Shown here: positions 2,251 to 56,459 of the stretch, piece by piece
How the letters are laid out: each line of letters begins with the position of its first letter
How positions within the stretch are numbered: the first letter of the stretch is position 1
Source: Omnitrophica WOR_2 bacterium GWF2_43_52
GTDB lineage: Bacteria; Omnitrophota; Gorgyraeia; Gygaellales; UBA12090
NCBI GenBank assembly: GCA_001805445.1
Contig: MHGF01000022.1
Span: 74,613-138,612 of the forward strand
Length of the DNA stretch: 64,000 nucleotides
Direction of reading: 5' to 3'
The notes under the pieces: model-generated
What the model was told of the DNA's origin: nothing
Seen by the model: only the letters and a program-made list of their open reading frames with translations
The model's database searches: none
Translations under genes and position numbers: made by a program

Positions 2251-2253
2251 TTA

Positions 2254-4831: not shown

Positions 4832-4846
4832 AATTTATTTTTTCTC

Positions 4847-5485: not shown

Positions 5486-5506
5486 CTATAAATCCTCCCT
5501 GAGAAA

Positions 5507-5533
5507 CCAATTCAACCTACGAGGTTGAATTGG
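5507..5533. repeat. hairpin ccaattcaacct-acg-aggttgaattgg (12-bp stem) with core CAACCTACGAGGTTG; same core as the palindrome at 18766-18816
   Basis: Direct inspection. Lies between the stop of the oxidoreductase gene and the start of the CPDGG gene. Confidence 0.6.
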
Positions 5534-6532: not shown

Positions 6533-6552
6533 AGTTCGCTTCGCTCACTCAC

Positions 6553-6650
6553 GAATTACCACGAATTTTTATCGAATTTACACAAATTAAATCTATATTT
6601 TATTCGTGGCCTTTCGGCTTCTTATTCGTGTGAATTCGTGTTTCTCGGAA
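6553..6650. repeat. MITE-like intergenic element with multiple ACACGAATT/AATTCGTG(T) half-sites in both orientations
   Basis: The sequence cacgaattaccacgaattt...ttattcgtgg...ttattcgtgtgaattcgtgttt belongs to the same family as elements at 17493, 22961, 29925, 36700, 37722, 41383 and 50218. Confidence 0.6.
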
Positions 6651-6897
6651 AGCCATACTTCCTATAATCAAACCCTACATCTTCCAAAAGGCGAATCATC
6701 AGGCTATAAAAAGGTTTAGGTACATCGCTAAAAAGCGCGGCAATAACATCTTGTTCTTCAACCTGGCGTACGGCGCGCGCTTTTGCATTTTCCTGAGCCT
6801 TAAGCGTTACCGCTTCTTCGGCAATACGCCGGTGAAACACCGGCATCTTAGCAACCATTAACTTAAATTTTTCTTGTGTCTTTATATTCCACTCCAT
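6622..6897 (-). CDS. small PCP_red-like domain protein (similar to the BchB/ChlB C-terminal 'protochlorophyllide reductase 57 kD' domain)
   Basis: 91 aa. The pattern W..K.QEKF...VAKMPVFHRRIAEEAV...A..AV..V...DVIAALF resembles the stand-alone PCP_red domain. Pattern match from memory. Confidence 0.4.
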   Translation of the reverse strand: MEWNIKTQEKFKLMVAKMPVFHRRIAEEAVTLKAQENAKARAVRQVEEQDVIAALFSDVPKPFYSLMIRLLEDVGFDYRKYGFPRNTNSHE

Positions 6898-6918
6898 AAT
6901 TTGCTCACTCCGCTCGCA

Positions 6919-6975
6919 AATAGTCGATAGCCTATAGTCGATTGTCCGCAGTAAGATCTATAGCTTATCGATTAT
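6919..6975. repeat. ATAGTCGATAG-type repeat element (aatagtcgatagcctatagtcgattg...ctatagcttatcgatta)
   Basis: Shares the ATAGTCGATAG/CTATAG motif with 25998-26032 and with an in-frame segment of mnmE at 45667-45696. Confidence 0.55.
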
Positions 6976-8516
6976 TAACTGTCGACCGCTTTCAGCTTTT
7001 CCTTTTGTATCTTCCCACTTGGGGTCTTGGGTAAGGTATCTCTGATTTCTACATTATGGGGAACCTTAAAATGCGCTAAATGCTCCCGGCAAAAAGAGCG
7101 GATATCTTCGGTGGTTGCCTCAACACCTTGCTTAAAGACCACAAACGCTTTGACGATTTCACCCCGCAGTTTATCCGGTATACCCACTACCGCCGCTTCT
7201 TGCACTGACGGGTGTTTTAAAAGCACGTTTTCCACTTCAAAAGAGTAAACAATCTCACCGGAAACTTTAATCATATCCTTTTTACGGCCTACTATATAAA
7301 GGAAACCTTCCTCATCAAATCTTCCTAAATCACCAGTGTGAAACCAGCCGTTTTTAATTACCTCTGAGGTAGTTTCTGGGTCCTTATAGTAGCCTTCCAT
7401 CACCACCCAGCCTTTAATAATAATCTCCCCTACCTCACCTTTCGGTAATTCCGTATCATCGTCAGCGGCTATTTTTACCTCAACCCATGGCGCTGGCTTT
7501 CCTATACTTTCAATTTTTTTTGAACCAAGAGGAATGACGGTGTTCGGCGGGCAGGTCTCAGTAAGCCCCCAGCCGTTTAAAAGATGCGCCTTAGGACAAT
7601 ACTGCTGGAATCGCCTCAAGGAATGAGGATCGCTCGGCGCCCCAAACACCACCACCCAGCGTAAGCTGGATAAATCAAAACTCTCAAACTCCTTTAAGTT
7701 TAAAATGGCATAATACATTGAAGGCACTAAATGAAAACAGGTGACTTTATATTTCTGGATATTCCTTAAGAATTCTAAAGGTTGAAAACGCTCCATCAAT
7801 ACAAGAGTAATTCCGTAGCAAATACAATTCTGGATATAAACAAGCCCGCCTGAATGGGACAAAGGAAGCGCGGAAAGTTTTACATCCTTATCCGTTAAAT
7901 CCACAAAATACTCCATAGCCTTTGGCGAACCGTCAAGATGCTTATAATTAAGCGAAATTCCTTTGGGCGAGCCGGTTGTGCCGGAAGTATACATAATAAG
8001 CGCGGGGTCTGTATCTTCTACTTTTATATCGGTAGGAAACGGCCTTGCAGAGGCTACCATATCCGTAAAAGAGCGAAAGCCGCTCTTCTGCGGCTCTAAA
8101 ACAATTACATGGGCTAAGCTGGAGGCTCGGTTTTTCAGGCTTTCAAGTGAAAGCCGCTCTTTTTCCTTAGCAATTAAAGCCTTGGCTTCACAATGGCTTA
8201 AACAGCTCGCCAGTTCATCCTCGGTAAGCATGTAATCCAGAGGAACAATGGTAGCGCCTATAGAAAATAGGGCCAAATAGCTATAGATATATTCAGGGCA
8301 ATTAGGTAAGTAAATGGCAACCTTGTCTGATTTCTTTATGCCTAAGCTAAGCAGACCATTGGCGAGCTTAAAGACATTATCATAGAGCTCTAAGAAGCTA
8401 ATCGGCTTGTCTCTTCCCGATAAATCGGGATCCCGACTCTTTTGTCGGGAAAAGATTATGGCCGGCTTGGAATGGAATTTCTTGGTAGTATCAATTAAGA
8501 CTTGGGCGACATTCAT
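6975..8516 (-). CDS. AMP-dependent synthetase/ligase (acyl-CoA or acyl-ACP ligase)
   Basis: 513 aa. Adenylation P-loop YTSGTTGSPKG, plus GWGLTE and a lysine near the C-terminus (PKTPSGKIQK). Confidence 0.85.
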   Translation of the reverse strand: MNVAQVLIDTTKKFHSKPAIIFSRQKSRDPDLSGRDKPISFLELYDNVFKLANGLLSLGIKKSDKVAIYLPNCPEYIYSYLALFSIGATIVPLDYMLTEDELASCLSHCEAKALIAKEKERLSLESLKNRASSLAHVIVLEPQKSGFRSFTDMVASARPFPTDIKVEDTDPALIMYTSGTTGSPKGISLNYKHLDGSPKAMEYFVDLTDKDVKLSALPLSHSGGLVYIQNCICYGITLVLMERFQPLEFLRNIQKYKVTCFHLVPSMYYAILNLKEFESFDLSSLRWVVVFGAPSDPHSLRRFQQYCPKAHLLNGWGLTETCPPNTVIPLGSKKIESIGKPAPWVEVKIAADDDTELPKGEVGEIIIKGWVVMEGYYKDPETTSEVIKNGWFHTGDLGRFDEEGFLYIVGRKKDMIKVSGEIVYSFEVENVLLKHPSVQEAAVVGIPDKLRGEIVKAFVVFKQGVEATTEDIRSFCREHLAHFKVPHNVEIRDTLPKTPSGKIQKEKLKAVDS

Positions 8517-9427: not shown

Positions 9428-12400
9428 TTATACTTTATCCGATTCCAGGGCAATAAGCAATCCCTTTAGGGAGGGTTCGGTGGCAGGCAATTTTTCATCC
9501 TCTTCCTCGCGCCGAAGGATATCGGCAAGCATAGCGCGAACCTGGTCTATTCTCTCTTCAGAGAGCGGACTGGCCACAGCTGCTGCCGTGTATTCGCCAA
9601 TGCGCTGGACAGACGGCCGGATCCCGGCGTTAAAGACAGCTTGAATTTGAGACCATTCTTTATCCAAATCCGACTTAGGGGTTATAGACAGCGGCCTAGA
9701 GACTAAAGACTGGAGACTTTGAATTTGCTGGGTTTGGATAGGTAGGGCGGCAAAATCGATGCCACCCTTGTCATCGCTGACTGATGAGGAGCTTGTTGAA
9801 TCCAAACTAATCTTATATACACCACCTTCATCAGAATAAATAATCACGGTTGATTCATTAATTACTTCTATCTTTTCTGGAATAATTGACAAACATGGCC
9901 AAACATTCAGGCTATTACTCGCAAAACGAATTGGCTTACCAACATAGGCAGAGGTCATAGGATCCCATAATTCTCCTTTGAGCTTTGTATTCGGCCTTAC
10001 TCCTTTTAATTCTTCTTTCTTCCAAAAAGTATTATTTTCGTCACTTCCACCGACTAATTCTAACGTGACTTTTGCATCCTCTTTAAATTTCTCGAAAACT
10101 TCTTCCTTAGATACGTTTCCTTTCTCTGGTTCCAACAAATAATTATATTGCTTACCAAAAAACAGCACGTTTCCTAAATGCTTAGCCACCTCGGCGAACC
10201 TGCCTAAAGAAGGCTTACAGGCACGTGCAGAATTAAAAAGATATTCTGCCCCTGCCACTGCTACTGCCTCTTTGGGTGTAGTTTTCCAATATTGCGTATA
10301 TCTTTTCAAGGCAACATTTGCATCTTGATATTTAGAATCGTTCTTCAATTCTTCATAACTATCTTCGCCCACGTAACACACCAGCCTTCCGCCATCTTCT
10401 CGATACACCCAATCTCCGTAATTAAAATCGCGAATCTCAGTATAATTCCCTTTTAACTCTCTTTTCAGCTCATCTAATGTCTTCAACTTGCCATTATGAA
10501 ACGCGCCGTAAAACCCAGCTTTGCGGGTAATCTCAATCCACGCATCAAAAGACACTATCGGATTGCTATTCTTATCGCTTGAAAGTGATATTTTATGCAT
10601 AATCTCATGCCAAAATGTTTTGGCCAAGTCTATGAAATTATTCTCATTCCGGACACCATTGATAAATATCGTATGGACTGTTTTTTGGCCAACCCACCCC
10701 CCAGCATTAACATCCAGCTCCGCAAAATCTATTTTTATGGGTATTTTTATCTTTCCCAGCAAATCTTTCGGAAACGATCCTAATATCTTTCTTACGTCTC
10801 CAAAACGTGATGGTGCCACATAAGAGAGAAATTCTATGTTTAATCCTTCCCTTATATCTCGCACTAACAAGAGATAACCCTCAAGGTCTTTTATGGTTTG
10901 CGAGTTATCAATTTTTCTCATACTGCCTAATTCAGACAATATCCTGCTTAACTTCTGAGAATCAATCCGACCGGACGTCTCAAATAGACCCTGTTCATTC
11001 TCTATATATAAATGCACCAGTTCTACCACATATTCATTAAATTCCGACCCTTTACTTTTAAGTATTTTCCCTAACAACTCTTTAGGGGACATCTTCTTTA
11101 TAGCCACTGCTTCCAAAAAATAAGTTTCCTTTATATGTTTAAGGAAAGACACATAATCTCTTAGACCAACCAACGCTACCAGCCTTTTCCTTTCCTTTCT
11201 TATTTCAGCTTCCGGCAATTCTGTATTTATCTGAACAATTACGTTATTTAACACATCCAGATTTATCTCATCGCTTTCCTTATTATCCTTCTGCTTAAGA
11301 TACTTAGCGATGTATTCTTTTATACCGTCATTCAGCCTTCCGGCACCTATATTCTTTTTTATAATCCATTTCACAAAATCTTCAAGAGATAACTCCCTTA
11401 ATTTTTCTGGTGAAGCTGCATATTTATCAAAATCGTGCTTTTCAAAACCTGCATTTCCCACCGCCGAGCTGGCGGAGGAACCATCTATAGGCAAATTAAT
11501 AATTTGTTTCCTTTCTACAGCTGAACTTACAGATAATAATTTACCTATTCCCCTATTATCTCTAACATTAGACAAATTAATCGCGCTTGTTTCATTAGGC
11601 ATAGTAAATGTTTCTTCTGTCATTACGTTAGTTAATGTAGCTGGCTTATAGTTATACTCAGCCATTACAAATTCTTCTCCGTCATGCCAATCTATAAAAA
11701 TCTTAGTCCCTTCATAACCCTCAGGCATATCACCAGTAAAACCAATCCAGAGATCTCTTTTTGTTTTTAGATTCTGGGCATAAAGAACATTCTCACCAGG
11801 GTCATATAGATATTTAAAATTCTCTTTATCCTTATCTTCACACACTTTCAGCTTGAAGGTGGCATGGGTTATAGGGTTAGTAACTTCTATTGTTCCATCG
11901 GCTCGCAATTCACTAAGTAGCCCCTGCCGCATTCTTAGTAAATGCTGCTCTCGCTCCTTCACTGTTTTTTCTTCTCCACCGGTGTCCTCAGAATAAAACG
12001 AGCAACCTCGAAAAATAGTGCGAAAAGGAGTTATATCTATGCCAGCCTCTATAAATTCTTTTTTCAACTCTGCTATAAACTGTGTGAGAAGAAAAGGAGA
12101 ATTTCTATACCTTGAAAAATATTCCTGCCGATGGTCTTTTCGAGCCGCGTCTGTAGAAGGATAGATAATGTCCCACAACAACTTCGTCTGAGGCTTAGTC
12201 GAATGATCGTTATCCTTAATTTCAAGGCTGTCATGAATTATTCTAAACAAAAATCTTTGTAATTCTGAAACCTTCAAGTCACTTGAAAGTAATCGGTCGC
12301 TATTAATGTCTTCTATCACTTTCTTAATATCACTCATTGTAATTGTGTTACCCCATTCCAGCTTTACGTCTGCGGAATCCTCTACCGCCGAGCTGGCGGG

Positions 12401-15400
12401 GGCAGGAGCACCTGTAGATTCATCTTGAAGCGGCACACCCCATAAATTAAGCACCTTTTCTATATCTCGAATATATTCTTCACCAATCTCTTTTTTAGGA
12501 TCGAGTTTAATCCGATCCTTTATTTTCTCTATTTGATCCCTCCAAGCCTTTATACGTGTTTCTAACTCGCCTATTTCAGAAGCAAATTTAAGTTCTTCTT
12601 CTAATATTCTCGGATGGGCATGTTGAAAAAAAAAGTTAAAGTCAGAATCAATAGCCCCTCTTTCTACAAATTTTTGCTCAAGTAATTCATGTAAAAATAC
12701 AGATTTTGTAGGAGAAATGCCTAATTCCTGACAAAACGCATGATAAGCCGCGGGAGAATAATATATGCCCTCCTTCTGGACAGACGGATGAAACATCCAT
12801 ACAATGGATGGTATGGATTCTGGGGCCATATATCTTGTAGCTTTTTCAATTTCATCCCATACTTTGCCTGCGCCACCCGCTAATTCCCTAACTCTTTTGA
12901 TCAATTCCGCAGATGCCCTATCCAACATAAACATCGTAATTCCTATTTTTACCTTAAAAACTCCAATTTCTTCTATAAATTTTTCAAGAGTCATTTTCCT
13001 AATTTTATCCTTGGAACCTATTTTGTTTTCAAGATATTCTGCGGTATCCTTCACCGCAGAATCTATTACATTGGAATCGGGTTTAGCCTTAGGCTGATTA
13101 TGAGCGCTGGCCATCTCCATTTGACTCACTACCTCTGCGATATTACGACTCTTTAAAGCACCCCAGATGTTTTTAGCGTCCAAATTATCTTTACTACCGT
13201 TTGCCAAAGTTACCAGAGACAGCTCCTTAGGCTCTGGATTCCGTCCAAAAAAGCTCATCAAAGAAGAAGAAGCTACTTTTTCTTTTTCACTTATTTCTTC
13301 CACCGCCGAGCTAGGCACATTATTATATGATTTTTCGCTATTGATACTATTTGTTCGATTTAAACCAACCCTTCTTACCATATCGTCTTCGGTAGGTAAC
13401 CTTTTTCCATGAACCCAAAGGGTAAGTCCTGGGTTCTTCTCTGTTATCTCCTTTAGTGCCGACTGATAATCCGGAACAAACATTTTGGCTGTCCAGCCTT
13501 CATAACCATATCCGCCAAAATAATCCAGATTAGTTACTTCTACTTTTTCTGAACTCTTTTTTACAAATATCAATTTTTTAGAATACTCGGCAAAAACTTT
13601 CTCTGCCTGATCCCTGAGAAATTCAGGGACTAAAATATAGTCTATATCTTCAAAACTGACTTCCTGAACACTCCAAGCTAAAGCACCACTTTTACCCGTA
13701 AGCAAGCCTATATCTTTCTTCTTAATAGTGTCAAATTGAGAGACAAAGAGAACAGAATGCATAACCCGCTCCTCCATCATTTCAGATAGAAGGCCATATC
13801 CATGAAGCAAACGTAAATCTTCCCCGTATCTTTCTGTAACAACTGGTAATACCGCATTGCCGTCGCGTCCATTATATAATGCGTCATAGGAAGTATTCAT
13901 AAATCCATTTCTTATTCCTTCTTTAGCCAATTCCTCTACATCTTCCAAAGATAATCCGGGGAGTCTATAGCTCTTATATATTTCCCCTGTTTGCTTAATG
14001 ATTACATTCCATGTCGTGCCATCATCTCCTTTCTCTAATGACAATGTAGGATTGATTATGACCCCATAAACTATAGGTGCTGGCGTTCGCGAGGATAGCG
14101 ACGTATCAACACGCAAACCTCCTCTTTTAATTTGCTCAAGTTGATAAACAATCTCGTCTCCGACCCGTTTCGAAATAAAAAATCCTAATTGCCTGCCTAA
14201 TGCCTTTGGAGATGACAACATACTCAAATCTACAGATAGAAGATAACTCAAAGATTGACCGCTGTGCCCGGTAACAGGATTGAATCTATCCATAATTATT
14301 CTATTTACCCTATATTCCCAATTATTAGCTGGAGATGTAAATTGAGAAACCGCCTTATCAATAAATATTGCCAGATTTTCTTTTCCTGCCCACTGAGCAT
14401 AATCTTTAAAAAGCTCTTCTAAATAGCTTAATCCTGCCACATCATTATTTTCTGTCCGCATAAATCTAACAACATCCTCTCCAGAGGTGCCAATACCAGC
14501 TGCCTTTCCTATGATTGTTGCTACACCATATTTGTTCAACGCTTCTGCAAATATTTTATAAGACTGCTCAATAATTGAAGATGAAGCTCTATCAGTTGCA
14601 AAGGACTCTATTAAAAATTTAGTTCTCGGAGGACTAATTGTCTTAGCAGGAATCTTAGAGATTGCGCTGCTAACTTGTTCCGTTCCAAACATCATCCCCC
14701 CGCTCATATACTTGCGGATACTCTGGCCCATAGGAGTATATATCGGCTCAGTGAGGTTGTATTCGCCATCTTGGAATGATTTCTGGTATTGCTGGAAGTA
14801 ATCTTGCTTGTCATACAGTTCTTTAGAAACCAAATTAGTCAAAGCCCCGGAATCTATGAGCTTGAAGTAATCATTGGCTTTTTCTGTCCTCTGTTCCCTG
14901 TTCTCTGTCATCTGCGAGCGAAAGCGAGCTTTAAACCACTGCGCCAAGATGAGCGAATAATACACCTGCCGAAGAGAAGCGTATCTCTTTGAGGTATTCA
15001 CCTGATAGGTAAGCTTAGGGATTACCAATTCTCTGATAAGCTGGGTAGAATATTCATTGAGCTCCTTTAGCCTTGGATCTTTGAAACTATAATTTATTAT
15101 CGTCCCTCGTCCTTCATCCTTCATCCCTCGTAAATAATCCTCCTCCAGCATCACTTTTAGGGTTGCTTTGTATATGTACGCATTATCAGGGGCTTCTCTG
15201 ATGATTATCTCATTGGGCACTATCCAGGGGCGGGTTAAGGTGGGTATGGTAATATTCTCCGTTCCAAATAATTCTTCTGCTTTCTTATAGAGTTTATCCC
15301 AGTAAACTTTTCCTTCAGGGTCTTGGGGTGAAGTAAAGTTTGCGGTGTCCTTCTTTAGCTGGACATCTGCTTCTAAGAATATCCTGCCGATATCAGTCAT

Positions 15401-15868
15401 TGCTACGTCATCATCTATGATGTTATCCGGTGAATCCGGCCTTAGGTTTACCCAGAATTTATCATTAGGCAGGCTTAAGCCGATAAAGAAGTATTTCAAT
15501 AGCTCTTTGGTAGCATTATTGAGCTCATTAGCTGGTGAGCTGGTTAGCTCATTAGCTAAATGGTTATCAAATTTAGTATCTCCTTTGTCTAACAATAGCT
15601 GAAAGTCATTGCTTTGGCTATCGTAGGAGATGTACCTTAGATGTAAGGGACGGAATTTGTCTTGGGGGATAACCGCATTACGGGCTTGGTTAAAGTAACC
15701 AGAAATATCCAGAGTCTGGGCTACTTGGGCAAAGCTGGTTTGCTCAAAGATAAGGCAGAAACAAAAGAAAAAATGGGCTATGCGCCCGCCACACTGCCTT
15801 GGCGGGCGTCCGCCTATGCTTTGTGGTGGACGTTGTGCGTTATGAGTCATGTCGAATACGATAGGCAA
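9428..15868 (-). CDS. giant multidomain protein A (2146 aa) of unknown function, sharing N- and C-terminal modules with the 26062-29616 paralog
   Basis: Single uninterrupted ORF. The first ~430 aa are ~85% identical to paralog B. The C-terminal ~100 aa (GGIDFAALPI...TEPSLKGLLIALESD) resemble the B C-terminus. An internal HExxH motif (FWHEIMHKISL) is present. The SSAVE linker motif recurs four times. The N-terminus has a long charged region before a hydrophobic stretch, IAHFFFCFCLIF. Confidence 0.8.
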   Translation of the reverse strand: MPIVFDMTHNAQRPPQSIGGRPPRQCGGRIAHFFFCFCLIFEQTSFAQVAQTLDISGYFNQARNAVIPQDKFRPLHLRYISYDSQSNDFQLLLDKGDTKFDNHLANELTSSPANELNNATKELLKYFFIGLSLPNDKFWVNLRPDSPDNIIDDDVAMTDIGRIFLEADVQLKKDTANFTSPQDPEGKVYWDKLYKKAEELFGTENITIPTLTRPWIVPNEIIIREAPDNAYIYKATLKVMLEEDYLRGMKDEGRGTIINYSFKDPRLKELNEYSTQLIRELVIPKLTYQVNTSKRYASLRQVYYSLILAQWFKARFRSQMTENREQRTEKANDYFKLIDSGALTNLVSKELYDKQDYFQQYQKSFQDGEYNLTEPIYTPMGQSIRKYMSGGMMFGTEQVSSAISKIPAKTISPPRTKFLIESFATDRASSSIIEQSYKIFAEALNKYGVATIIGKAAGIGTSGEDVVRFMRTENNDVAGLSYLEELFKDYAQWAGKENLAIFIDKAVSQFTSPANNWEYRVNRIIMDRFNPVTGHSGQSLSYLLSVDLSMLSSPKALGRQLGFFISKRVGDEIVYQLEQIKRGGLRVDTSLSSRTPAPIVYGVIINPTLSLEKGDDGTTWNVIIKQTGEIYKSYRLPGLSLEDVEELAKEGIRNGFMNTSYDALYNGRDGNAVLPVVTERYGEDLRLLHGYGLLSEMMEERVMHSVLFVSQFDTIKKKDIGLLTGKSGALAWSVQEVSFEDIDYILVPEFLRDQAEKVFAEYSKKLIFVKKSSEKVEVTNLDYFGGYGYEGWTAKMFVPDYQSALKEITEKNPGLTLWVHGKRLPTEDDMVRRVGLNRTNSINSEKSYNNVPSSAVEEISEKEKVASSSLMSFFGRNPEPKELSLVTLANGSKDNLDAKNIWGALKSRNIAEVVSQMEMASAHNQPKAKPDSNVIDSAVKDTAEYLENKIGSKDKIRKMTLEKFIEEIGVFKVKIGITMFMLDRASAELIKRVRELAGGAGKVWDEIEKATRYMAPESIPSIVWMFHPSVQKEGIYYSPAAYHAFCQELGISPTKSVFLHELLEQKFVERGAIDSDFNFFFQHAHPRILEEELKFASEIGELETRIKAWRDQIEKIKDRIKLDPKKEIGEEYIRDIEKVLNLWGVPLQDESTGAPAPASSAVEDSADVKLEWGNTITMSDIKKVIEDINSDRLLSSDLKVSELQRFLFRIIHDSLEIKDNDHSTKPQTKLLWDIIYPSTDAARKDHRQEYFSRYRNSPFLLTQFIAELKKEFIEAGIDITPFRTIFRGCSFYSEDTGGEEKTVKEREQHLLRMRQGLLSELRADGTIEVTNPITHATFKLKVCEDKDKENFKYLYDPGENVLYAQNLKTKRDLWIGFTGDMPEGYEGTKIFIDWHDGEEFVMAEYNYKPATLTNVMTEETFTMPNETSAINLSNVRDNRGIGKLLSVSSAVERKQIINLPIDGSSASSAVGNAGFEKHDFDKYAASPEKLRELSLEDFVKWIIKKNIGAGRLNDGIKEYIAKYLKQKDNKESDEINLDVLNNVIVQINTELPEAEIRKERKRLVALVGLRDYVSFLKHIKETYFLEAVAIKKMSPKELLGKILKSKGSEFNEYVVELVHLYIENEQGLFETSGRIDSQKLSRILSELGSMRKIDNSQTIKDLEGYLLLVRDIREGLNIEFLSYVAPSRFGDVRKILGSFPKDLLGKIKIPIKIDFAELDVNAGGWVGQKTVHTIFINGVRNENNFIDLAKTFWHEIMHKISLSSDKNSNPIVSFDAWIEITRKAGFYGAFHNGKLKTLDELKRELKGNYTEIRDFNYGDWVYREDGGRLVCYVGEDSYEELKNDSKYQDANVALKRYTQYWKTTPKEAVAVAGAEYLFNSARACKPSLGRFAEVAKHLGNVLFFGKQYNYLLEPEKGNVSKEEVFEKFKEDAKVTLELVGGSDENNTFWKKEELKGVRPNTKLKGELWDPMTSAYVGKPIRFASNSLNVWPCLSIIPEKIEVINESTVIIYSDEGGVYKISLDSTSSSSVSDDKGGIDFAALPIQTQQIQSLQSLVSRPLSITPKSDLDKEWSQIQAVFNAGIRPSVQRIGEYTAAAVASPLSEERIDQVRAMLADILRREEEDEKLPATEPSLKGLLIALESDKV

Positions 15869-16082: not shown

Positions 16083-16100
16083 TTGTGAAATCTTTCATAA
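16083..16100 (+). promoter_or_regulatory. candidate Rex operator TTGTGAAATCTTTCATAA immediately upstream of the nuoA promoter
   Basis: Matches the Rex-box consensus TTGTGAA-N4-TTCACAA with one mismatch. It abuts a -35-like TTGACA, and a rex gene lies at 55836-56459. Confidence 0.4.
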
Positions 16101-37811: not shown

Positions 37812-38636
37812 TCAATCAACAATAATAACCTCTGTGCCTACGGGAAGCAGGCTATAGAGTTCCTCTACTTCTGCGTTATGCATCCGCACGCAGCCGGCAG
37901 TCGCTTGTTTTCCAATACTTCCGGGGTCGGTAGTGCCGTGGATACCATAGCTTGCGATATCGAAACCAAGCCAGCGTGTCCCTAAAATATTTTCCGGGCT
38001 ATCAGCAGGAACAACCGCTCCTGCTTTATACCAGGTAGGATTTACCAATTTTGTGGTTATTTTAAAATTACCCACTGGAGTTGAATTGCTGGTTCCGGTT
38101 GCTACATTATATATTTTCACAATCTCATCGTTTGATTTCAGGACCAGAATATTCTGTGATTTATCAACAAACACGCTGAACTTAGCCGTCCATATTTTAA
38201 GCTTTTGGCCCGGGGTGATTCGGTCAGAGGTAAGATTATTGCTTCTTTTAATGAGTTCTACGGTGGTAGTAAATTGCTTGGCAATTTTGACAAGAGAATC
38301 TAACGGCTGAACATCATACGATTGGCTTACACCGGTAACAATAAGCGGAGAGAGGATAATTTTCAGGTTCACTTCATCAAGTCTTTTCTGCCACGCGTTT
38401 ACGTCTTTATGCCCGGGGAAATCATTGATTAATTTTGTATACGCTGCCTTGATGGCCACAAGATCCCCTTTTTGCTCCATGGCTTGAGCTTCTTTGAGAA
38501 GGCTTTGCACTGACGTGTGTGCTGCAACAGGAGAATTACCTGTCGATGAAACACGGGGCCTAAAAATAAAAAAGGCTCCGGCTATCCCTACGGCTAAGAA
38601 AAATATCACAATAAGCACAATTCTGTTTCTCACCAA
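37812..38636 (-). CDS. L,D-transpeptidase (YkuD domain) with LysM domain
   Basis: 274 aa. N-terminal TM or signal, LysM-like YDVQPLDSLVKIAKQF...GQKLKI, and catalytic HGTTDPGSIGKQATAGCVRM. Confidence 0.8.
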   Translation of the reverse strand: MVRNRIVLIVIFFLAVGIAGAFFIFRPRVSSTGNSPVAAHTSVQSLLKEAQAMEQKGDLVAIKAAYTKLINDFPGHKDVNAWQKRLDEVNLKIILSPLIVTGVSQSYDVQPLDSLVKIAKQFTTTVELIKRSNNLTSDRITPGQKLKIWTAKFSVFVDKSQNILVLKSNDEIVKIYNVATGTSNSTPVGNFKITTKLVNPTWYKAGAVVPADSPENILGTRWLGFDIASYGIHGTTDPGSIGKQATAGCVRMHNAEVEELYSLLPVGTEVIIVD

Positions 38637-46033: not shown

Positions 46034-47431
46034 TTAACTGTTTGTAACTGCCTTTAATATTATCTTTCTGGCTTCTCCCACTACAAATAATGAACCGGTA
46101 ATCAAAATTAAGTCTTTGGAGCCGGCGAGGTATTTGGCAAGGACAATTGCTTTCTTTACATCAGACGTTACTTCTAACGGTTTGCCTATATATTTTTTAA
46201 TGCTTTCAGGCTCTTCTGCCCTAGGATTCCAGGCTTTAGTCAGAATGACCTTATCCGCGATATCCTCAAGCATCGCACAGACACCCTCTATATCTTTATC
46301 AGAAGAAATCCCTAAAACTAAAATCAGCTTTTGATACGTATAATATTTCTTTAATGCTTCCTTGAGCGTAAACGCTGAAGCCGTGTTTTGCGCTCCATCA
46401 AGAATTATCGTCGGCTTTCTCCCCGCTATTTCAAGCCTGCCCGGCCAAGAGGCGCTCATTAAACCTCTTTTTATTACGTGGGGACTCAGGCGCTTATCCT
46501 CAAGCGCCTCTGCCATACCGATAGCCAAAGAAGCATTATCCAATTGATGTTCACCAAGCAGTTTTATTTTCAGGCCCGTATACTTTCTCTTCAGCCCTCT
46601 GACCTCAAAGCTCTGCCACTCACCCTTGATTCTTCCTAAACGCCAGACAATATCTTTACCTACTTCATATAACCTTGCCTTTTCTTTAAGGCAACGTTTT
46701 TTTATAACTGCCCGTGCCTCTTTCTTCTGCGCCGCACTTATGACAATGAGGGAATTGCCGTATCTATCGTCCTTCGTCCCTCGTCCCTCGTCCCTCTTAA
46801 TAATCCCCGCCTTCTCTTTCGCTATTTTTGCGAGGCTCTTGCCTAAAAGATCCATATGGTCATAGCTTATCGGGGTAATCCCGCAGACTAAAGGGTCTAC
46901 CACATTAGTAGCGTCAAGCCTCCCGCCTAACCCTGTTTCTAAAACCGCGTAATCCACTCGTTGTTCCTTAAAATACATAAACGCAAGCGCCGTATACACC
47001 TCAAAAAAAGTCAAATCCCCATATTTACTTACGCGCTGATATTTCTCAATTAACGGCTTTACTCTTTCTACAAGATGTGTTATCTCTTTCTTGCTTATCA
47101 TCCCCTCAAACTCGTCCTTCGTCTTTCGTCTTTCGTCCTTCGTCTTTCGTAATACGCGAATTCTCTCCCTTACATCCATTAAATGCGGCGAGGTATATAA
47201 TCCCACGCTATAGCCGGCTTCTCTTAAAATAGAGGCAATAAAAATACATACTGAGCCTTTCCCCTTAGTGCCGGCAATATGCAGGCATTGTAAGGCCTCT
47301 TGCGGATTACCGATAAGTTCCAAAAAATCCTGAATTCTTTCTAACTTAAAGGATTTTCTATAAGAATACGTATTTTTATTCTCATAGTTAATGAACGAAT
47401 TAAGATAGGCGAGTGCCTCTGTATAAGTCAT
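46034..47431 (-). CDS. folC: bifunctional folylpolyglutamate synthase / dihydrofolate synthase
   Basis: 465 aa. P-loop GTKGKGS, SPHL and Mur-ligase central and C-terminal domains. Two low-complexity insertions (RKTKDERRKTKDE and DEGRGTKDDRYG) are encoded by the GACGAAGGACGA-type microsatellite. Confidence 0.85.
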   Translation of the reverse strand: MTYTEALAYLNSFINYENKNTYSYRKSFKLERIQDFLELIGNPQEALQCLHIAGTKGKGSVCIFIASILREAGYSVGLYTSPHLMDVRERIRVLRKTKDERRKTKDEFEGMISKKEITHLVERVKPLIEKYQRVSKYGDLTFFEVYTALAFMYFKEQRVDYAVLETGLGGRLDATNVVDPLVCGITPISYDHMDLLGKSLAKIAKEKAGIIKRDEGRGTKDDRYGNSLIVISAAQKKEARAVIKKRCLKEKARLYEVGKDIVWRLGRIKGEWQSFEVRGLKRKYTGLKIKLLGEHQLDNASLAIGMAEALEDKRLSPHVIKRGLMSASWPGRLEIAGRKPTIILDGAQNTASAFTLKEALKKYYTYQKLILVLGISSDKDIEGVCAMLEDIADKVILTKAWNPRAEEPESIKKYIGKPLEVTSDVKKAIVLAKYLAGSKDLILITGSLFVVGEARKIILKAVTNS

Positions 47432-49302: not shown

Positions 49303-49995
49303 TTACGTCCTCACATTCAGCGTATCTCCATCCTTCATCACATATTCTCTACCCTCAAGATGCATATACTGTTTTGCCTGGGCTAAACCTCCTGCCTTCA
49401 CCACATCCTCATAACCGATAATCTCAGCCTTAATAAACTTCTGCTGGATAGCCGAATGAATCGCTCCGGCCGCGTCATAAGCGGTCGCGCCTTTTTTTAT
49501 GGGCCAGGCCTTAAGTTCCTTGTCTTTTGCCCCGGTAATAAAGCAAATCATCCCAAAGGCGTAAAAACTTTCAAACATTATATCCTGTGCCGGTTTATTT
49601 TCATTTTTATCCACAAAAAGTGTCGGCTTTATGCTTACCAGGTTATAATTAAGCAGTAATTTCCTTTCCTCTTCGCTAAAGTTTTCTTCTATCAGGCATT
49701 TATTCTTGTCTAAAATATCTTTGAGGCGCAGAATAAAGCTTTTATCTTCCCCCTCTTTGAGGCGCTCAAGACGGTTTTCTACCATCTCTATATCCTGAAT
49801 AATCAAATCTAATTTCGCCTCTTTTTCGCAAATAATCCCATCAGCATCCTTAACCCTTGAGCCGTCAAAATATTCATTAGTGATATACGTGGTCTTGGAA
49901 GGTTTGATCAGGGGCTCCAGGATATCCAAACGCCCATCAACCATGTTTTTCTTACCTAACGGAAACTCGGACAATCCAATAACAGATATTTTCAT
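49303..49995 (-). CDS. YchF-like protein with degenerate or truncated G-domain and intact C-terminal TGS domain
   Basis: 230 aa, versus ~363 for canonical YchF. The P-loop position reads GLSEFPLGKK instead of GLPNVGKST. The C-terminal GAKDKELKAWPIKKGATAYDAAGAIHS..FIKAEII.YED......EGREYVMKDGD aligns to the YchF TGS domain. Confidence 0.6.
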   Translation of the reverse strand: MKISVIGLSEFPLGKKNMVDGRLDILEPLIKPSKTTYITNEYFDGSRVKDADGIICEKEAKLDLIIQDIEMVENRLERLKEGEDKSFILRLKDILDKNKCLIEENFSEEERKLLLNYNLVSIKPTLFVDKNENKPAQDIMFESFYAFGMICFITGAKDKELKAWPIKKGATAYDAAGAIHSAIQQKFIKAEIIGYEDVVKAGGLAQAKQYMHLEGREYVMKDGDTLNVRT

Positions 49996-50725: not shown

Positions 50726-51889
50726 CTATTTTTTTGTTTTGGCTTCCTTGACAAAGATTAAGAAGATAAGCGAGATAATGGTAAGGGTAAGAGATAGATA
50801 GAAAGGGCTTACGATGCTCACTTTATCCCAGAGCAGGCCGGCGATAAGCGAAGCGGGCAGGGCAGAGAGGCCTATCACCATCTGAAATGCCCCTAAACTG
50901 CTTGCCTTATAATCTTGTGGGGCAAGTTCGGAAACAAAGGTCTTTTGCACCGGCTCCAAAGCTGCCTTGTGCAGGCCGTATAACACAAATACCAGGACAA
51001 TCGCGGTATGCGCCTTAGAAAAGATAGCAATCAAGCACACCGCTATCCATAAACTATAGGCAACCACTAATACCGCTTTTCTTCCTATGCGGTCGGAAAG
51101 CCTGCCAAAAGGAAGAGAAAATATCGCCGCAAAAATGGTAAATAGTAAATACAACACCGGCACCGCGGCTATACTAAATCCGCATTTTTTGGCATAGATA
51201 AGCAAAAACGAATAACTAAAAGAGCCAAGGGCAAAGATGGCGTTTAAGAAAAGAAATAGCCTAAAATTCCTATCCAGATGTTTTACGGTAAGGCCTTTAT
51301 AAATCTTTGTATCAGAAACCTTTTGTTCTTTGATAAAGAGAAAAATTATAAGTGCTCCGATAAGAGATGGAATTGCCGCCAGAAGAAACAGCTTTCTATA
51401 TCCTAAGATATTTAAAAATACAATGCTCACGACAATCCCGCAGACCGCGCCAAAATTATCCATTGCCCGCAGTAAACCAAAATTGTAGCCCCTGTTTTCT
51501 TTAGTGGAAATATCGGCAACAATGGCGTCTCGGGGGGCACTGCGTATTTTTCCTGCCCTATCTAAAATCCTAAAAGGTATCAAATGCTGCCATATGCCTG
51601 ATATGCTATAGCCTATCCTTGAAGCTCCGCCGCACAAATATCCTATCCAGACAAAAACCTTTCTTTTGCGTATCCTGTCTGAAACATAGCCGGAAGCTGC
51701 CTGCGATAGAGATACTAAGGCCTCCCCCAAGCCGTCCAAAAGCCCCAAGACCGCCATATTCGCCCCTAATACCGAAGTAACAAACATCGGCCAGATAGGA
51801 TAAATAATATCTGAACCTAAATCATTCAAGAATGAGGCTAAGGCGAAAATCCTGACCGTTTTTTTTGTTTCTTTAGGCTCCATACTCAT
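50726..51889 (-). CDS. MFS transporter
   Basis: 387 aa with ~12 TM helices. The G..SDR.GRK motif sits between TM2 and TM3. Confidence 0.8.
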   Translation of the reverse strand: MSMEPKETKKTVRIFALASFLNDLGSDIIYPIWPMFVTSVLGANMAVLGLLDGLGEALVSLSQAASGYVSDRIRKRKVFVWIGYLCGGASRIGYSISGIWQHLIPFRILDRAGKIRSAPRDAIVADISTKENRGYNFGLLRAMDNFGAVCGIVVSIVFLNILGYRKLFLLAAIPSLIGALIIFLFIKEQKVSDTKIYKGLTVKHLDRNFRLFLFLNAIFALGSFSYSFLLIYAKKCGFSIAAVPVLYLLFTIFAAIFSLPFGRLSDRIGRKAVLVVAYSLWIAVCLIAIFSKAHTAIVLVFVLYGLHKAALEPVQKTFVSELAPQDYKASSLGAFQMVIGLSALPASLIAGLLWDKVSIVSPFYLSLTLTIISLIFLIFVKEAKTKK

Positions 51890-51949
51890 AATAAAAAATG
51901 GGCTAGAGTTATCCCTGCTTTTCTAGCCCATTTTCTGTTATATACGTTA

Positions 51950-53101
51950 TTATTCGATATACGTATAAATCTTCCCGCGGTAGTTGCGTAAGACATACTT
52001 TCCTTTTGCCTGAGAAAGCATATAATTCGGGCTTACGGGGATTTTTCCACCGCCGCCGGGGCCGTCAATGACAAAAGTAGGAACGGCATACCCTGAGGTA
52101 TGGCCCCTGAGCTTTTCTATAATGTTTATTCCTGTAGCCACAGGCGTCCTAAAATGCGCGGTGCCTTTTACAGGATCACACTGGTAAATATAATACGGCC
52201 GCACCCTGATTTCTAAAAGCTCGTGCATTAACCGTTTCATAATATACGGTTTGTCGTTAATACCTTTTAAAAGCACAGTCTGGCTGCCCATAGGGAAACC
52301 GTTATCTGCCAACATATCACAGGCAAGCTTTGTGCGCTTATTGATTTCTTTAGGATGATTGAAATGGATGCTCAGCCAAATAGGCGAATATTTCTTAAGC
52401 ATTCTGACAAAATCCTCGGTTATTCTCTGGGGCAGGCTTACCGGAATGCGCGTTCCGATACGCAACAACTCCACATGAGAAATAGCACGAAGATTCTTCA
52501 GGATTTCCTCCAGGTTCTCATCCTCAAGCATAAAGGGGTCGCCGCCTGAAATAAGCACATCGCGTATTTTGCGGTTTGCCTTGATATACTCAAATGCTTG
52601 ATCAAACTTGGAAGGAGCGGCAACTGCCGATTTATCGCCAACAAGCCTGCGCCGCGTGCAATGGCGGCAATATGCCGCGCAGCTTTCGGTAGCCAAAAAC
52701 AATACCCTGTCCGGATAACGGTGCACAAGCCCGGGGACAGGAGAATCCCTGTCCTCCGCGCAAGGGTCAGACATCTCATGCGGGCTATTCTGAAATTCAA
52801 GGCCTAAGGAGACAAATTGCCTGCGGATGGGGCAATTAGGGTCATTAGGGTCCATCAACGTTGCCAAATGCGGAGTGATAGCAAGCCCAAGCTTCCCGCT
52901 TGATTTCTTAATTCCCAGCTCTTCCTCTTTTGTTAAATTGATTACCTTGGCAAGCGCCTCCTTGGTGCGGATTCTGTTACGCATCTGCCAATGCCAATCT
53001 TCCCAGTCCAAAGGATTCACGTCTTTAAAAAGCTCAATATCATGATAATCAACACCCGTGCGCCTGGTAACATGGTTATTTGATAAAAAGGGCAATGCCA
53101 A
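51950..53101 (-). CDS. KamA family radical SAM aminomutase (lysine 2,3-aminomutase-like)
   Basis: 383 aa. The CAAYCRHCTRRR cluster motif and GGDPFML are typical of the KamA/EpmB family. Unusual TTG start with an AAGGAGG about 47 nt upstream, so the start is uncertain. Confidence 0.8.
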   Translation of the reverse strand: MALPFLSNNHVTRRTGVDYHDIELFKDVNPLDWEDWHWQMRNRIRTKEALAKVINLTKEEELGIKKSSGKLGLAITPHLATLMDPNDPNCPIRRQFVSLGLEFQNSPHEMSDPCAEDRDSPVPGLVHRYPDRVLFLATESCAAYCRHCTRRRLVGDKSAVAAPSKFDQAFEYIKANRKIRDVLISGGDPFMLEDENLEEILKNLRAISHVELLRIGTRIPVSLPQRITEDFVRMLKKYSPIWLSIHFNHPKEINKRTKLACDMLADNGFPMGSQTVLLKGINDKPYIMKRLMHELLEIRVRPYYIYQCDPVKGTAHFRTPVATGINIIEKLRGHTSGYAVPTFVIDGPGGGGKIPVSPNYMLSQAKGKYVLRNYRGKIYTYIE

Positions 53102-53393
53102 CTGGTATTTAAGTTTTTCAGCTACAAGTGTATTATTCAGTGTACACCTCCTTGTATAATATATGTAATTAACTATGTTACATGCGGGGATTAGGTGATT
53201 AGGGGATCGGGATTTGAGGATTGGGATATCAGGATATTGGGAACAAAATCCCGGTCTTTCCCCTAATTCCCCAGTCTCCTAATCTCCTCCCGCCCACGGC
53301 GGGATCCCGCTTCATCCAAGACTATAGCGGGAAAACCCTAATTTCCTAATACCCTGGTGTCCCTGCCTGCGGCAGGCAGGCGCACCCCCCCTT

Positions 53394-53436
53394 TAGTGCA
53401 CTAATAATTCTTAGAAACTAATTTCATAGTGCACTA
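53394..53436. promoter_or_regulatory. two copies of the perfect 10-bp palindrome TAGTGCACTA spaced 33 bp apart (candidate dimeric-regulator operator) in the 350-bp leader upstream of the KamA gene
   Basis: Palindromes at 53394-53403 and 53427-53436, read directly. Confidence 0.4.
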
Positions 53437-53451
53437 GTATTTGCGTAACCG

Positions 53452-54522
53452 TTATGGCGTAGTTTTACGTAATATGCCTCGTTGTTCGGCGTAGTCAACC
53501 GAACAGACATCTTTTTTCAACCCATATCTTTCTAACGCGCCATGCAATACTGTTTTAATCAAATCTGGGTATCCCATGCCTGCTGCGCGGCTCATCACCG
53601 GAAAATTCGATTCTTTCGGGTCAAGGCCGGGCAGAGGATTCACTTCTAAGACATACGGAATATTATCATGGCTTAACCGGATATCGGTCCGGGATATATC
53701 ATAGCATCCCAGAGCCTTGTGGGCGCGCAGCGCCACTTCTTTTATTGTATCCGTAGTTTCTTCAGACAGCCTCGCGGGGCAATAAAAATGCGGGACACAT
53801 CCCATTTCCTTATTTCCCTGAAATTCCTTCATCTTCCAGGAATAAAAAAACTCCCCACTGGCATGGCAATTAGAAAAATCGACCTCTAATATAGGCAGCG
53901 CGATTGCTTTCGCGTTACCTAATACCCCCACCGTTATTTCTTTTCCTTCAATAAATTCCTCAACCAATGCCTCATGCTTGTACGTTTCTAATGTCCGTTC
54001 TATTTGCCTGCGAAGATCTTCTTTGGTATAAACAACGCTTGAAACGCTGATACCTTTTCCCGAACCTTCACAGTTTGGCTTAACGATTAAAGGGAATTTG
54101 AGCTTGGGGTTGAGGGATGTATGTAAAGAATCAAATATCTGAAAACGCGGGGTAGGTATATTTTCCGCCATAAAGACCCGTTTTGCCATGGCTTTATCTA
54201 ACGCTAATGCGAGCGCGAAAGGGCCTGAACCTGTATACGGAATTCTAAAAAAATCAAGCAGCGCGGGGACCTCGGATTCCCTGAATTTAGAATCAGAGCC
54301 CTCGGCAATATTAAAGACAAAGTCTACAGAATTATTTTGAAAAAAGGAGAGGAGCTGTTTAGGGTTATTCGCTTCAACTAAAACAACTTCATGGCCCAGG
54401 TTTTTTATGGCCGCGGCAATACTTAAGACCGTCTCCTCGGAATCAAATTCCGAATAATAATCGGGAGGCTTATCAGAGGCCTTATCTTTCTTTTTTATAC
54501 TACAGGTAAGGGCTATCTTCAT
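53452..54522 (-). CDS. D-alanine--D-alanine ligase family ATP-grasp enzyme (paralog 2)
   Basis: 356 aa. Ddl-like N-domain, ATP-grasp core and C-terminal EVNPLPGL motif. Tandem with a second paralog. Confidence 0.7.
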   Translation of the reverse strand: MKIALTCSIKKKDKASDKPPDYYSEFDSEETVLSIAAAIKNLGHEVVLVEANNPKQLLSFFQNNSVDFVFNIAEGSDSKFRESEVPALLDFFRIPYTGSGPFALALALDKAMAKRVFMAENIPTPRFQIFDSLHTSLNPKLKFPLIVKPNCEGSGKGISVSSVVYTKEDLRRQIERTLETYKHEALVEEFIEGKEITVGVLGNAKAIALPILEVDFSNCHASGEFFYSWKMKEFQGNKEMGCVPHFYCPARLSEETTDTIKEVALRAHKALGCYDISRTDIRLSHDNIPYVLEVNPLPGLDPKESNFPVMSRAAGMGYPDLIKTVLHGALERYGLKKDVCSVDYAEQRGILRKTTP

Positions 54523-55518
54523 TTAGTTCATACCGTAGCGCGAAAACGCGGCATCAATGATACGCTTAATCATTTCCGCGTACGGCACCTTGAGGTAATT
54601 GGCAATACACATAAAGACATCTTCCCCGGACAAGCTCGGTAGAGGATTAATCTCCAAGACATACGGCTCATTATCCGCGGTTACCCGGAAATCGACTCTT
54701 CCGAAATCGCGGCAGTCAATTGCCTTATAGGTGCGTAAAGCCAAGCTTTTAAGTTTACGTTCTAAAGATTTATCTATCGCGGGAGAACAGACGTACTCCA
54801 GGCGGTTAGAATGGATTCTGGTAAACGTATAGAATTTATCACCCAGTTTTAATTTTCCGTCAATCTTTATCTGTACCGGAGGCAACACTTCAGGATTATG
54901 ATTGCCTATTATGGCTACGGTGTACTCGGTGCCCGGGATAAATTCTTCAATGATCGCTGCCTGGCGATAGGTTTTGACGATATAGGCTATTTGTCTTTCG
55001 AGCGCGTCAACAGTTTTGACACGCGATTTTTCGCTCAAACCTTTTGAAGAACCTTCATAGCGCGGTTTAACGATTAAAGGGAATTTCATCTTTTTCATCT
55101 TGGCGACAGTGTCGCTAACGCTCTCTGTTTCAAAAAATCTTGGTGTAGGAATCCCTTCCGCTGCAAGAATCCGCTTTGTTATCGCCTTATCCAAACTGAT
55201 TCCAAGCGTCAGGGCATCAGAACCAACACAAGGAATACCTTTCATTTCGAGAATTAGCGGCACCTGAGATTCCCTGTTCCTGCCGGCTTTACCTTCGGCA
55301 ATATTAAAAACTATATCGACGTTCAGATGGCCTATTTTCTTCAGAAGATTATCGACATTACCGATTTTTACTACCGTATAGCCCAGCGATTCTATTGTCT
55401 GGGCAATCAGATTAACAGTAAGAGGATGATCGAATTCGGCATTGGCATCCGGAGGATCGCTATCTTTTAATTTATACTCTGTCCTTAAATCGTAGGTTAA
55501 GCCGATTTTTCTCTTCAT
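54523..55518 (-). CDS. D-alanine--D-alanine ligase family ATP-grasp enzyme (paralog 1)
   Basis: 331 aa. Same architecture, with EINPLPSL. The stop abuts the paralog 2 start. Confidence 0.7.
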   Translation of the reverse strand: MKRKIGLTYDLRTEYKLKDSDPPDANAEFDHPLTVNLIAQTIESLGYTVVKIGNVDNLLKKIGHLNVDIVFNIAEGKAGRNRESQVPLILEMKGIPCVGSDALTLGISLDKAITKRILAAEGIPTPRFFETESVSDTVAKMKKMKFPLIVKPRYEGSSKGLSEKSRVKTVDALERQIAYIVKTYRQAAIIEEFIPGTEYTVAIIGNHNPEVLPPVQIKIDGKLKLGDKFYTFTRIHSNRLEYVCSPAIDKSLERKLKSLALRTYKAIDCRDFGRVDFRVTADNEPYVLEINPLPSLSGEDVFMCIANYLKVPYAEMIKRIIDAAFSRYGMN

Positions 55519-55835
55519 ATAGATTTAGTGCTCCGTGACATAACTTTCTGCTAATTTATGATGTAGTAGTGCATCAACAAAAAAGAGACACAGTGTACTC
55601 CTTTGTGTCTCTTTGCGTTATCTCATTTTTGATTGCGAAATCCCGTCCTCCCTAAAAAACTCTTTTTTTTACGCATCTACATATTGTGTTACTATCATTT
55701 TTTTAGCACAACATATTCGTATTGTCAAGAAAAAAATCACTCTTTCGAAGAGCTTTTTTATTCATTGTCGGGCCAGGAGCTGTTTCCTGATGCTCTTTTT
55801 AAAAGAATCTCGCGCAGAGCAGTCTACTACCACAG

Positions 55836-56459
55836 CTAGGCCTGCGACAAAAAATACGTTAAATTAAAAAGTTCCGTTGACAAATCCACGTTGCGCAATT
55901 TCACAGCCGCAGGCGCTGCCAAAGTTATCGGAGCAAAATTCAGTATCGCTTTTATACCGCACTGTGTCAATTGTTCCATAACCGCTTGCGCCGCGTTAAC
56001 CGGCGTCGCGATAATAGCTATTTCTATAGTAAGGGATTTCACTATTTTTTTCATGTCTTCTAAAGGATAAATCGTTACTCCGCCCTTTTTCTTATCGAAT
56101 TTCTTGGGGTCGACATCAAAACAAGCAACGATAGTAAGGTTTTGCTCTTTGAAACCTTTGTAGGTTAAAAGCGCCGAACCAAGGTTACCCGCGCCGCAGA
56201 CACAGACATTCCAGCTTTTATTTAACCCTAATATCTGGCTAAGCTTATTTTTCAAGCTATCAATGGAATATCCGACTCCGCGCCTGCCAAACTGCCCGAA
56301 ATACCAGAGGTCTCGGCGCAATTGATCTGAACTAATGGTTAGTTCCCGGGCTAAATCCTGCGACGATATCGTGGTAGTAGTCCTCGTCTTAGACAATTCC
56401 TGCAAGGTGCGTAAATATAAGGCCAAACGGCTTATAGTATCCTTAGATGGCTTTTTCAT
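55836..56459 (-). CDS. rex: redox-sensing transcriptional repressor Rex
   Basis: 207 aa. N-terminal wHTH (RLALYLRTL), Rossmann GxGxxG (VCVCGAGNLGSAL) and overall Rex colinearity. Confidence 0.85.
   Translation of the reverse strand: MKKPSKDTISRLALYLRTLQELSKTRTTTTISSQDLARELTISSDQLRRDLWYFGQFGRRGVGYSIDSLKNKLSQILGLNKSWNVCVCGAGNLGSALLTYKGFKEQNLTIVACFDVDPKKFDKKKGGVTIYPLEDMKKIVKSLTIEIAIIATPVNAAQAVMEQLTQCGIKAILNFAPITLAAPAAVKLRNVDLSTELFNLTYFLSQA

Follow-up and report, generated by a model that had tools for sequence, protein, structure and literature searches.

What would a radical-SAM aminomutase be doing beside two tandem ligases that resemble D-alanine-D-alanine ligase (Ddl)? The question is raised by positions 50726-55518 of a 64-kb stretch of DNA from Omnitrophica WOR_2 bacterium GWF2_43_52 (the window; all positions are counted within it), where four co-directional open reading frames (ORFs) lie on the minus strand. 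They encode two ATP-grasp ligases (AG1 and AG2), a KamA-like aminomutase and a transporter of the major facilitator superfamily (MFS). A sequence-only reading of the DNA had placed these four genes here, and Pfam and NCBIfam profile searches of the window proteins agreed with it. On comparisons of sequence and gene order, we consider it reasonably probable that the locus encodes a ribosome-independent pathway to a beta-lysine-containing amide or small peptide. The whole cluster is on the minus strand, and its features, in the direction of transcription, were as follows:

55519..55835, minus strand, leader separating rex from AG1 (sigma-70-like -35 box; hairpin followed by a U-run)
55518..54523, minus strand, AG1, Ddl-like ATP-grasp ligase of type I (331 amino acids; Pfam Dala_Dala_lig_C, 1e-34)
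54522..53452, minus strand, AG2, second Ddl-like ATP-grasp ligase of type I (356 amino acids; Pfam Dala_Dala_lig_C, 1e-35)
53102..53451, minus strand, AG2-KamA spacer (350 nt, structured)
53101..51950, minus strand, KamA-like radical-SAM aminomutase (383 amino acids; Pfam Radical_SAM and LAM_C)
51889..50726, minus strand, MFS transporter (387 amino acids, 12 transmembrane segments; Pfam MFS_1, 5e-47)

The ATG of AG2 directly abuts the stop codon of AG1, and the MFS gene begins 60 nt after KamA.

Conservation of the arrangement was determined within the phylum. A scan of a genome collection returned a close relative of AG1 in at least 559 species genomes, and 80 loci were kept. Nearly all of these were labelled as Omnitrophota, or as Planctomycetales/Planctomycetia; the latter labels may be an effect of binning or naming. 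Omnitrophota species loci with sufficient downstream DNA (n = 66) were taken as evaluable. AG1 was followed by KamA in every one of them (66/66), so the arrangement is far above chance. AG2 lay between the two genes in 60/66 loci, and AG1 and KamA stood alone in the remaining 6/66.

The same module was recovered from other phyla. At E < 1e-30, HMMER with AG1 as the query against the full library matched 913 representative clusters, many of them proteins of 650-790 amino acids with two Ddl-like domains, and clades were drawn from domain-level BLAST and a rough neighbour-joining tree. The type I clade comprised AG1, AG2, the N-terminal halves of one class of double ligase (class A), both halves of a second class (class B) and the KamA-fused domains, while the type II clade consisted of the class A C-terminal halves. 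The clade nearest to AG1 in the rough neighbour-joining tree was that of the KamA-linked N-terminal halves of class A. Class A operons are ordered KamA-(type I-type II)-GNAT, with examples from a source labelled Myxococcota, a Desulfoferrobacter metagenome-assembled genome and a 5.7-Mb contig named circular. Linkage was counted across 80 metagenomic loci, using the evaluable subsets as denominators. KamA was directly upstream of the class A double in 60/65 loci, a type II domain came after the type I domain in 64/71, and a GNAT gene was found downstream of the double in 39/45. Related double ligases had at least 592 metagenome matches, and some of the other carriers bear the source labels Desulfobacterota, Myxococcota, Spirochaetota, Planctomycetota and Gammaproteobacteria. 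Conservation of the neighbourhood, a check proposed in the sequence-only reading, was thus seen in related genomes and beyond them.

In several proteins the partners are joined into a single chain. KamA::ATP-grasp fusions were found (P0491, P0495, P0496, P0504, P0508, P0513), as was a fusion in the reverse order, ATP-grasp::KamA (P0338), and ATP-grasp-ATP-grasp-GNAT fusions (P0454, P0473). Of all the evidence at hand, the repeated independent fusions and the co-localisation across phyla speak most strongly for a ligase that would act on the product of the aminomutase. Some class A clusters also carry an HDAC-type deacetylase (PF00850) after the ligases, at times fused to the GNAT (examples at L099:8018-9868, L112:8224-10476 and L118:8077-9852), and the combination of deacetylase and GNAT suggests an acetylation/deacetylation cycle on the product. 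The GNATs in the clusters of other phyla are about 160 amino acids long and RimI-like, with weak matches to RimI-like models only; no match to the AblB model was found among them. Other class A variants carry an MFS gene, and one variant retains just KamA and a type I ligase together with an MFS-HEAT protein. Such partners (GNAT, deacetylase, MFS) are typical of small-molecule metabolism, specifically of the polyamine-like or osmolyte kind, and atypical of cell-wall or protein-modification systems.

The assignment of the aminomutase was made by model scores and by alignment. The best NCBIfam model for the KamA homolog was that of the AblA-type lysine 2,3-aminomutase, TIGR03820 (514.2 bits, cut-off 525.4). 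Scores were below the cut-offs of the glutamate 2,3-aminomutase model TIGR04368 (450.6 bits, cut-off 650), the arginine 2,3-aminomutase model (403 bits, cut-off 600) and the EpmB model TIGR03821 (242.5 bits, cut-off 369.3). The homolog is narrowly under the TIGR03820 cut-off because model positions 361-417 are absent, and an orthologous KamA fragment from another Omnitrophota genome (L022) cleared it at 536.9 bits. Identity to the Clostridium subterminale lysine 2,3-aminomutase (PDB 2A5H) was 57% over residues 23-383. In the alignment to 2A5H, the radical-SAM CxxxCxxC motif is present as CAAYCRHC, and the lysine that binds pyridoxal phosphate is kept, with GPGGGGK aligned to GGGGK. Asp293 and Asp330, which hold the epsilon-ammonium group of lysine and whose counterparts in glutamate 2,3-aminomutase are Lys and Asn, are kept in the window KamA and in each of the five further ATP-grasp-linked KamAs that were aligned.

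The homolog stops at the equivalent of residue 367 of 416 and so is without the C-terminal cysteine-rich segment of about 50 residues; the position of Cys268 in the Clostridium enzyme is occupied by Lys. The paper describing the 2A5H structure reportedly places zinc-binding cysteines in the C-terminal domain of the Clostridium enzyme. A short C-terminus together with AblA as best model was common to all ATP-grasp-linked KamAs examined. The start codon is uncertain, a TTG giving 383 amino acids and an internal start, as called in GCA_003499645.1, giving 362. By these comparisons the KamA homolog is a predicted lysine 2,3-aminomutase of a short-C-terminal subtype, not EpmB. An EpmB with efp and epmA nearby, the case which the sequence-only reading had set against its own proposal, is not what the window holds (514 vs. 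242 bits, with neither gene present).

AG1 and AG2 share 39% identity with each other, and each shares 27-29% with Escherichia coli DdlB. Both scored below the cut-offs of the Ddl models NF002378 (AG1, 177.3 bits; AG2, 187.6 bits; cut-off 243) and TIGR01205 (AG1, 157 bits; AG2, 164 bits; cut-off 245.65). Sequence searches of the PDB with either ligase matched Ddl chains only. An AlphaFold model of AG1 (predicted local distance difference test, 72.6; predicted template-modelling score, 0.77) was compared with Ddl structures, giving template-modelling scores of 0.73-0.77 at 20-25% identity, and a Ddl-like, three-domain ATP-grasp fold is predicted. Proteins of the AG1/AG2 type are labelled D-alanine-D-alanine ligase by JGI, and ATP-grasp domain-containing or hypothetical protein by NCBI. 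An apparent truncation of AG2 in GCA_001804465.1 was rejected as a strain difference, the N runs there being assembly gaps.

Comparison with the Ddl active site, which the sequence-only reading had thought informative, separated two kinds of residue. In the DdlB sequence that served as the reference, the E15 and H63 positions were confirmed by counting, and the PDB alignments agree with it. The ATP/Mg residues K97, K144, E180, E187, R255, D257, E270 and N272 of DdlB are kept in both ligases, are invariant across 81 AG1 and 61 AG2 family sequences, and are also kept across related clades. AG1 and AG2 are for this reason probably active, with acyl-phosphate chemistry expected. The residues that bind D-Ala are largely replaced. 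In AG1, H63 is changed to an invariant E, K215 to I, S281 to an invariant D and L282 to V, and Y216 is lost. In AG2, H63 is changed to E, Y216 to E and L282 to N, all three without variation in the sampled family; K215 and S281 are retained. At the N terminus, the GGxSxE motif (E15) is replaced in both by YDL..(A/S)EFD, and the motifs of AG1 are YDL..AEFD, FNIAEG and RE. Acidic substitutions in the substrate pockets would fit a cationic substrate, such as a diamino acid.

From these observations a pathway of four steps is proposed. The KamA-type enzyme would turn L-lysine into beta-lysine (3,6-diaminohexanoate), as its homology and active-site residues suggest. AG1 would then activate a carboxylate by forming the acyl-phosphate and couple it to an amine, one of the partners being beta-lysine, a step to which the linkage and the fusions point. 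AG2, a translationally coupled paralog, might add a second amide bond or hetero-oligomerise with AG1. The MFS protein might carry the product or a precursor over the membrane, in this lineage only, and this last step is the most loosely drawn. The product would most likely be a small cationic di- or tri-amide, a solute or polyamine-like molecule. A broader idea, held tentatively and on balance doubted, is that the product belongs to a class of primary metabolite not recognised before, namely a beta-lysine oligoamide acting as a polyamine-like polycation or an osmolyte, universal in Omnitrophota and widespread in largely uncultured bacteria, whose level is set in many lineages by an acetylation/deacetylation cycle and transport.

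Some observations weigh against the proposed pathway. The trio of AG1, AG2 and KamA sits in a housekeeping synteny conserved across Omnitrophota (M20, PAC2 and HAD genes upstream; a ychF-like gene, purH, folC and trmE downstream), so part of its conservation could be stable gene order, an explanation disfavoured because of the cross-phylum linkage and the fusions. The GNAT and deacetylase partners are absent from this cluster, and no GNAT was found within 10 kb on either side. MFS follows KamA in 2/58 other Omnitrophota loci (L007 and L008), the slot being filled mostly by an EF-G-like GTPase or by nothing, which makes the transporter a lineage-specific addition and a recent recruit. Matches of the MFS protein to NCBIfam drug and tetracycline efflux models were weak. 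Non-orthologous MFS genes recur next to the module in other phyla; orthology across phyla was rejected, as at least four unrelated MFS types occur there. The beta-amino-acid peptide pathway of the sequence-only reading is thus strongly supported, by conservation within and beyond the phylum and by the fusions, for KamA supplying Ddl-like ligases outside peptidoglycan synthesis, and is weaker for the MFS protein, which is not a conserved member.

A canonical ddl was not found in 1.95 Mb of fetched loci, which says little because these were selected around this cluster, nor in the contig flank past the left window edge, which is uninformative. The point bears on whether AG1 or, more plausibly, AG2 is the housekeeping D-Ala-D-Ala ligase, with adjacency to KamA a mere matter of gene order. 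We regard this as unlikely, even though both ligases have the Ddl fold and find their best structural and sequence matches in Ddl, AG2 keeps K215, R255 and S281, the JGI label reads D-alanine-D-alanine ligase, and no canonical ddl came to light in the roughly 2 Mb just described. The organism also makes peptidoglycan, as a YkuD gene (37812..38636) indicates, and a recent preprint describes the Mur pathway as intact in the phylum and reports the Ddl orthology group K01921 in 176/176 complete Omnitrophota genomes, an assignment that AG1/AG2-type genes may themselves have triggered. Set against this are scores of 177-188 bits where 243 is the cut-off, relatives named by NCBI as ATP-grasp domain-containing only, and the replacement of GGxSxE, H63 and Y216 in both ligases, with K215 and S281 also gone from AG1. 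AG2 is missing from 6/66 loci, and fusions of KamA with AG1-type domains occur in other phyla. The mur/fts context is absent too: none of murF, ftsQ, efp, epmA or a canonical ddl was found among the scanned ORFs of the window, where the sole Mur-ligase-fold gene is of folC type (46034..47431), and the remark that this is not a peptidoglycan ddl setting therefore stands. Modification of a protein is distinctly unlikely, in our judgement. Beta-lysine would here be put on a translation factor or ribosomal protein, as EpmA/EpmB do on EF-P or in the manner of RimK tailing; EpmB is indeed a KamA paralog that feeds protein modification, ATP-grasp enzymes such as RimK do modify proteins, and an EF-G-like GTPase and the YchF-like gene lie just downstream of KamA in most other Omnitrophota. 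The KamA homolog, however, is AblA-like and not EpmB-like, efp, epmA and the EF-G-like gene were not found in the window, the partners found in other phyla (GNAT, deacetylase, MFS) are those of small-molecule metabolism, and the Ddl clade is known for small-molecule substrates.

Beta-lysine might also become a side-chain or cross-bridge residue on a precursor of peptidoglycan, much as D-Asp is added by the D-aspartate ligase of Enterococcus faecium, an ATP-grasp enzyme. There is ATP-grasp precedent for decoration of the stem peptide, the trio is universal in a walled phylum and the ligases are of Ddl ancestry, but cell-wall genes are unlinked to the module in every lineage examined, and the partners named above, with the KamA fusions, better suit a soluble metabolite; we rate this as very improbable. 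Less credence still is given to the classical AblA/AblB route to N-epsilon-acetyl-beta-lysine, an osmolyte, with the ATP-grasp genes as unrelated neighbours, which we hold to be most improbable. The aminomutase is closest to the AblA model and a GNAT stands beside the module in other phyla, yet there is none in or adjoining this cluster, the short RimI-like GNATs elsewhere do not match AblB, and the ligases are the invariant partners, even to the point of fusion with KamA. A beta-lysine amide or small peptide made by the aminomutase and the ligases together is the reading we retain.

The sequence-only reading had overlooked the 350-nt AG2-KamA spacer. Its minimum free energy was -126.8 kcal/mol (z = -5.0 vs. 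shuffles), and it contains several long GC-rich hairpins. It occurs solely in contigs of the same species, the corresponding spacer elsewhere in Omnitrophota being roughly 50-200 nt. Rfam returned nothing credible, either for the whole window at gathering thresholds or for the spacer and leader at permissive E-values. The cluster may be divided by the spacer into two transcription units, and the spacer might be a block of terminator and promoter, a leader that regulates KamA-MFS, or a small insertion. A precursor peptide encoded in the spacer was rejected, no convincing small ORF being present, as was a mobile element, of which there was no further copy in the window or in other species.

The upstream neighbour of the cluster is rex (55836..56459). 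The leader between rex and AG1 has a -35 box of TTGACA type near 55727 and, some 55 nt ahead of the AG1 start, a terminator-like hairpin with a U-run, GAGACACAAAGGAGUACACUGUGUCUCUUUUUU, which may act as an attenuator. No Rex box was found upstream of AG1; the window has a single good one, at 16083, a near-consensus Rex operator, TTGTGAAATCTTTCATAA (16083-16100), about 340 nt upstream of the nuo operon (start 16438). The position of this operator suggests that rex controls nuo and not the adjacent ligase cluster.

Downstream of the cluster were found a small ORF that resembles a lipoprotein, a protein with only the C-terminal part of YchF, purH, folC, trmE and folE. The YchF-related protein (49303-49995, minus strand, 230 amino acids) comprises the YchF C-terminal and TGS part only and lacks a recognisable P-loop G domain; it is kept beside purH in most Omnitrophota loci at 36-43% identity, rising to 74-81% in the two closest relatives. 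In most Omnitrophota, as at L022:11217-13178 and in about 40 other loci, KamA and the ychF-like gene are separated by an EF-G-like GTPase of about 650 amino acids that has all five EF-G domains. It was rejected as a member of the system and treated as synteny because it is missing from this window. A conserved 245-amino-acid protein with no Pfam match lies directly upstream of AG1 at L042:7058-7795 and in about 20 other Omnitrophota loci, preceded there by an AIR-synthase-related protein, and is not found in this window.

Other genes of the window include fatty-acid-type synthases, the nuo operon, an RND efflux system, accA and a YkuD L,D-transpeptidase. The last of these (37812-38636, minus strand) combines LysM and YkuD domains, and the organism accordingly has peptidoglycan with 3-3 cross-link capacity. 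An ORF of 2146 amino acids (9428-15868, minus strand) was without a Pfam domain; very long proteins are a trait of Omnitrophota according to a recent preprint. Positions 859-8516 hold a cluster in which two ketoacyl synthases are accompanied by an AMP-binding enzyme, a ketopantoate-reductase-like protein and ORFs without annotation. Past the window edge (L178) it runs on through genes for a B12-binding radical SAM protein, an acyl carrier protein and a polyketide cyclase to an MFS gene. The cluster may be a lipid or polyketide-like pathway.

If the proposed pathway is correct, it gives a testable function to genes labelled Ddl, ATP-grasp or hypothetical in at least 559 Omnitrophota species genomes. 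It would also mean that mislabelling as Ddl can inflate the inferred completeness of the cell-wall pathway in an almost uncultured phylum. The biosynthetic logic would be new, with a radical-SAM aminomutase feeding ATP-grasp ligases and sometimes fused to them. A full-text literature search, whose scope did not extend to the 2009 survey of ATP-grasp amidoligases, found no paper linking an aminomutase to ATP-grasp or Ddl-like ligases. Ribosome-independent synthesis of peptides and amides by ATP-grasp enzymes is known; what would be new is a dedicated supply of a beta-amino acid by a radical-SAM enzyme.

Several known systems share parts of this arrangement. The AblA/AblB pathway to N-epsilon-acetyl-beta-lysine, found in methanogens and some bacteria, likewise uses a KamA/AblA-type enzyme as the dedicated source of beta-lysine for a small nitrogen-rich solute, and the module in other phyla also has a GNAT. 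Here, one or two Ddl-like ligases replace AblB, there is no GNAT, and the aminomutase is without its C-terminal domain. In the EpmB/EpmA system too, beta-lysine comes from a KamA paralog and is then attached in amide linkage by an ATP-dependent ligase dedicated to it; EpmB, however, belongs to another KamA clade, EpmA is a paralog of lysyl-tRNA synthetase rather than an ATP-grasp enzyme, and no efp lies near the present cluster. With the Ddl/VanA family, AG1 and AG2 share the fold, the ATP/Mg catalytic residues and presumably the acyl-phosphate mechanism. They differ from it in the replaced D-Ala residues and N-terminal motif, the scores below cut-off, the lack of mur/fts genes and the pairing with an aminomutase.

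ATP-grasp enzymes that make di- or tripeptides without ribosomes include BacD/YwfE, RizA/RizB, TabS, Ngg (for the osmolyte N-acetylglutaminylglutamine amide, NAGGN) and carnosine synthase, and such ligases sometimes use non-proteinogenic or beta-amino acids, carnosine being beta-Ala-His. In Ngg a GNAT is coupled to an ATP-grasp domain, as in the GNAT-fused double ligases described above. All of these enzymes belong to other ATP-grasp clades, and we know of no coupling or fusion of any of them to a radical-SAM aminomutase. A further counterpart is the class B double ligase (type I-type I), which has two type I Ddl-like domains, as AG1 and AG2 provide. Unlike the present cluster, class B is without KamA and has a peptidase as its partner, a Peptidase_S58 (DmpA/BapA family) gene coming next in 3/3 contexts (L087:8001-11432, L096:7001-10206 and L097:2910-6387). 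S58 enzymes include beta-peptidyl aminopeptidases. By analogy, the S58 partner points toward peptides of beta- or D-amino acids, and this sister module may in turn hint at the natural substrates of beta-aminopeptidases.

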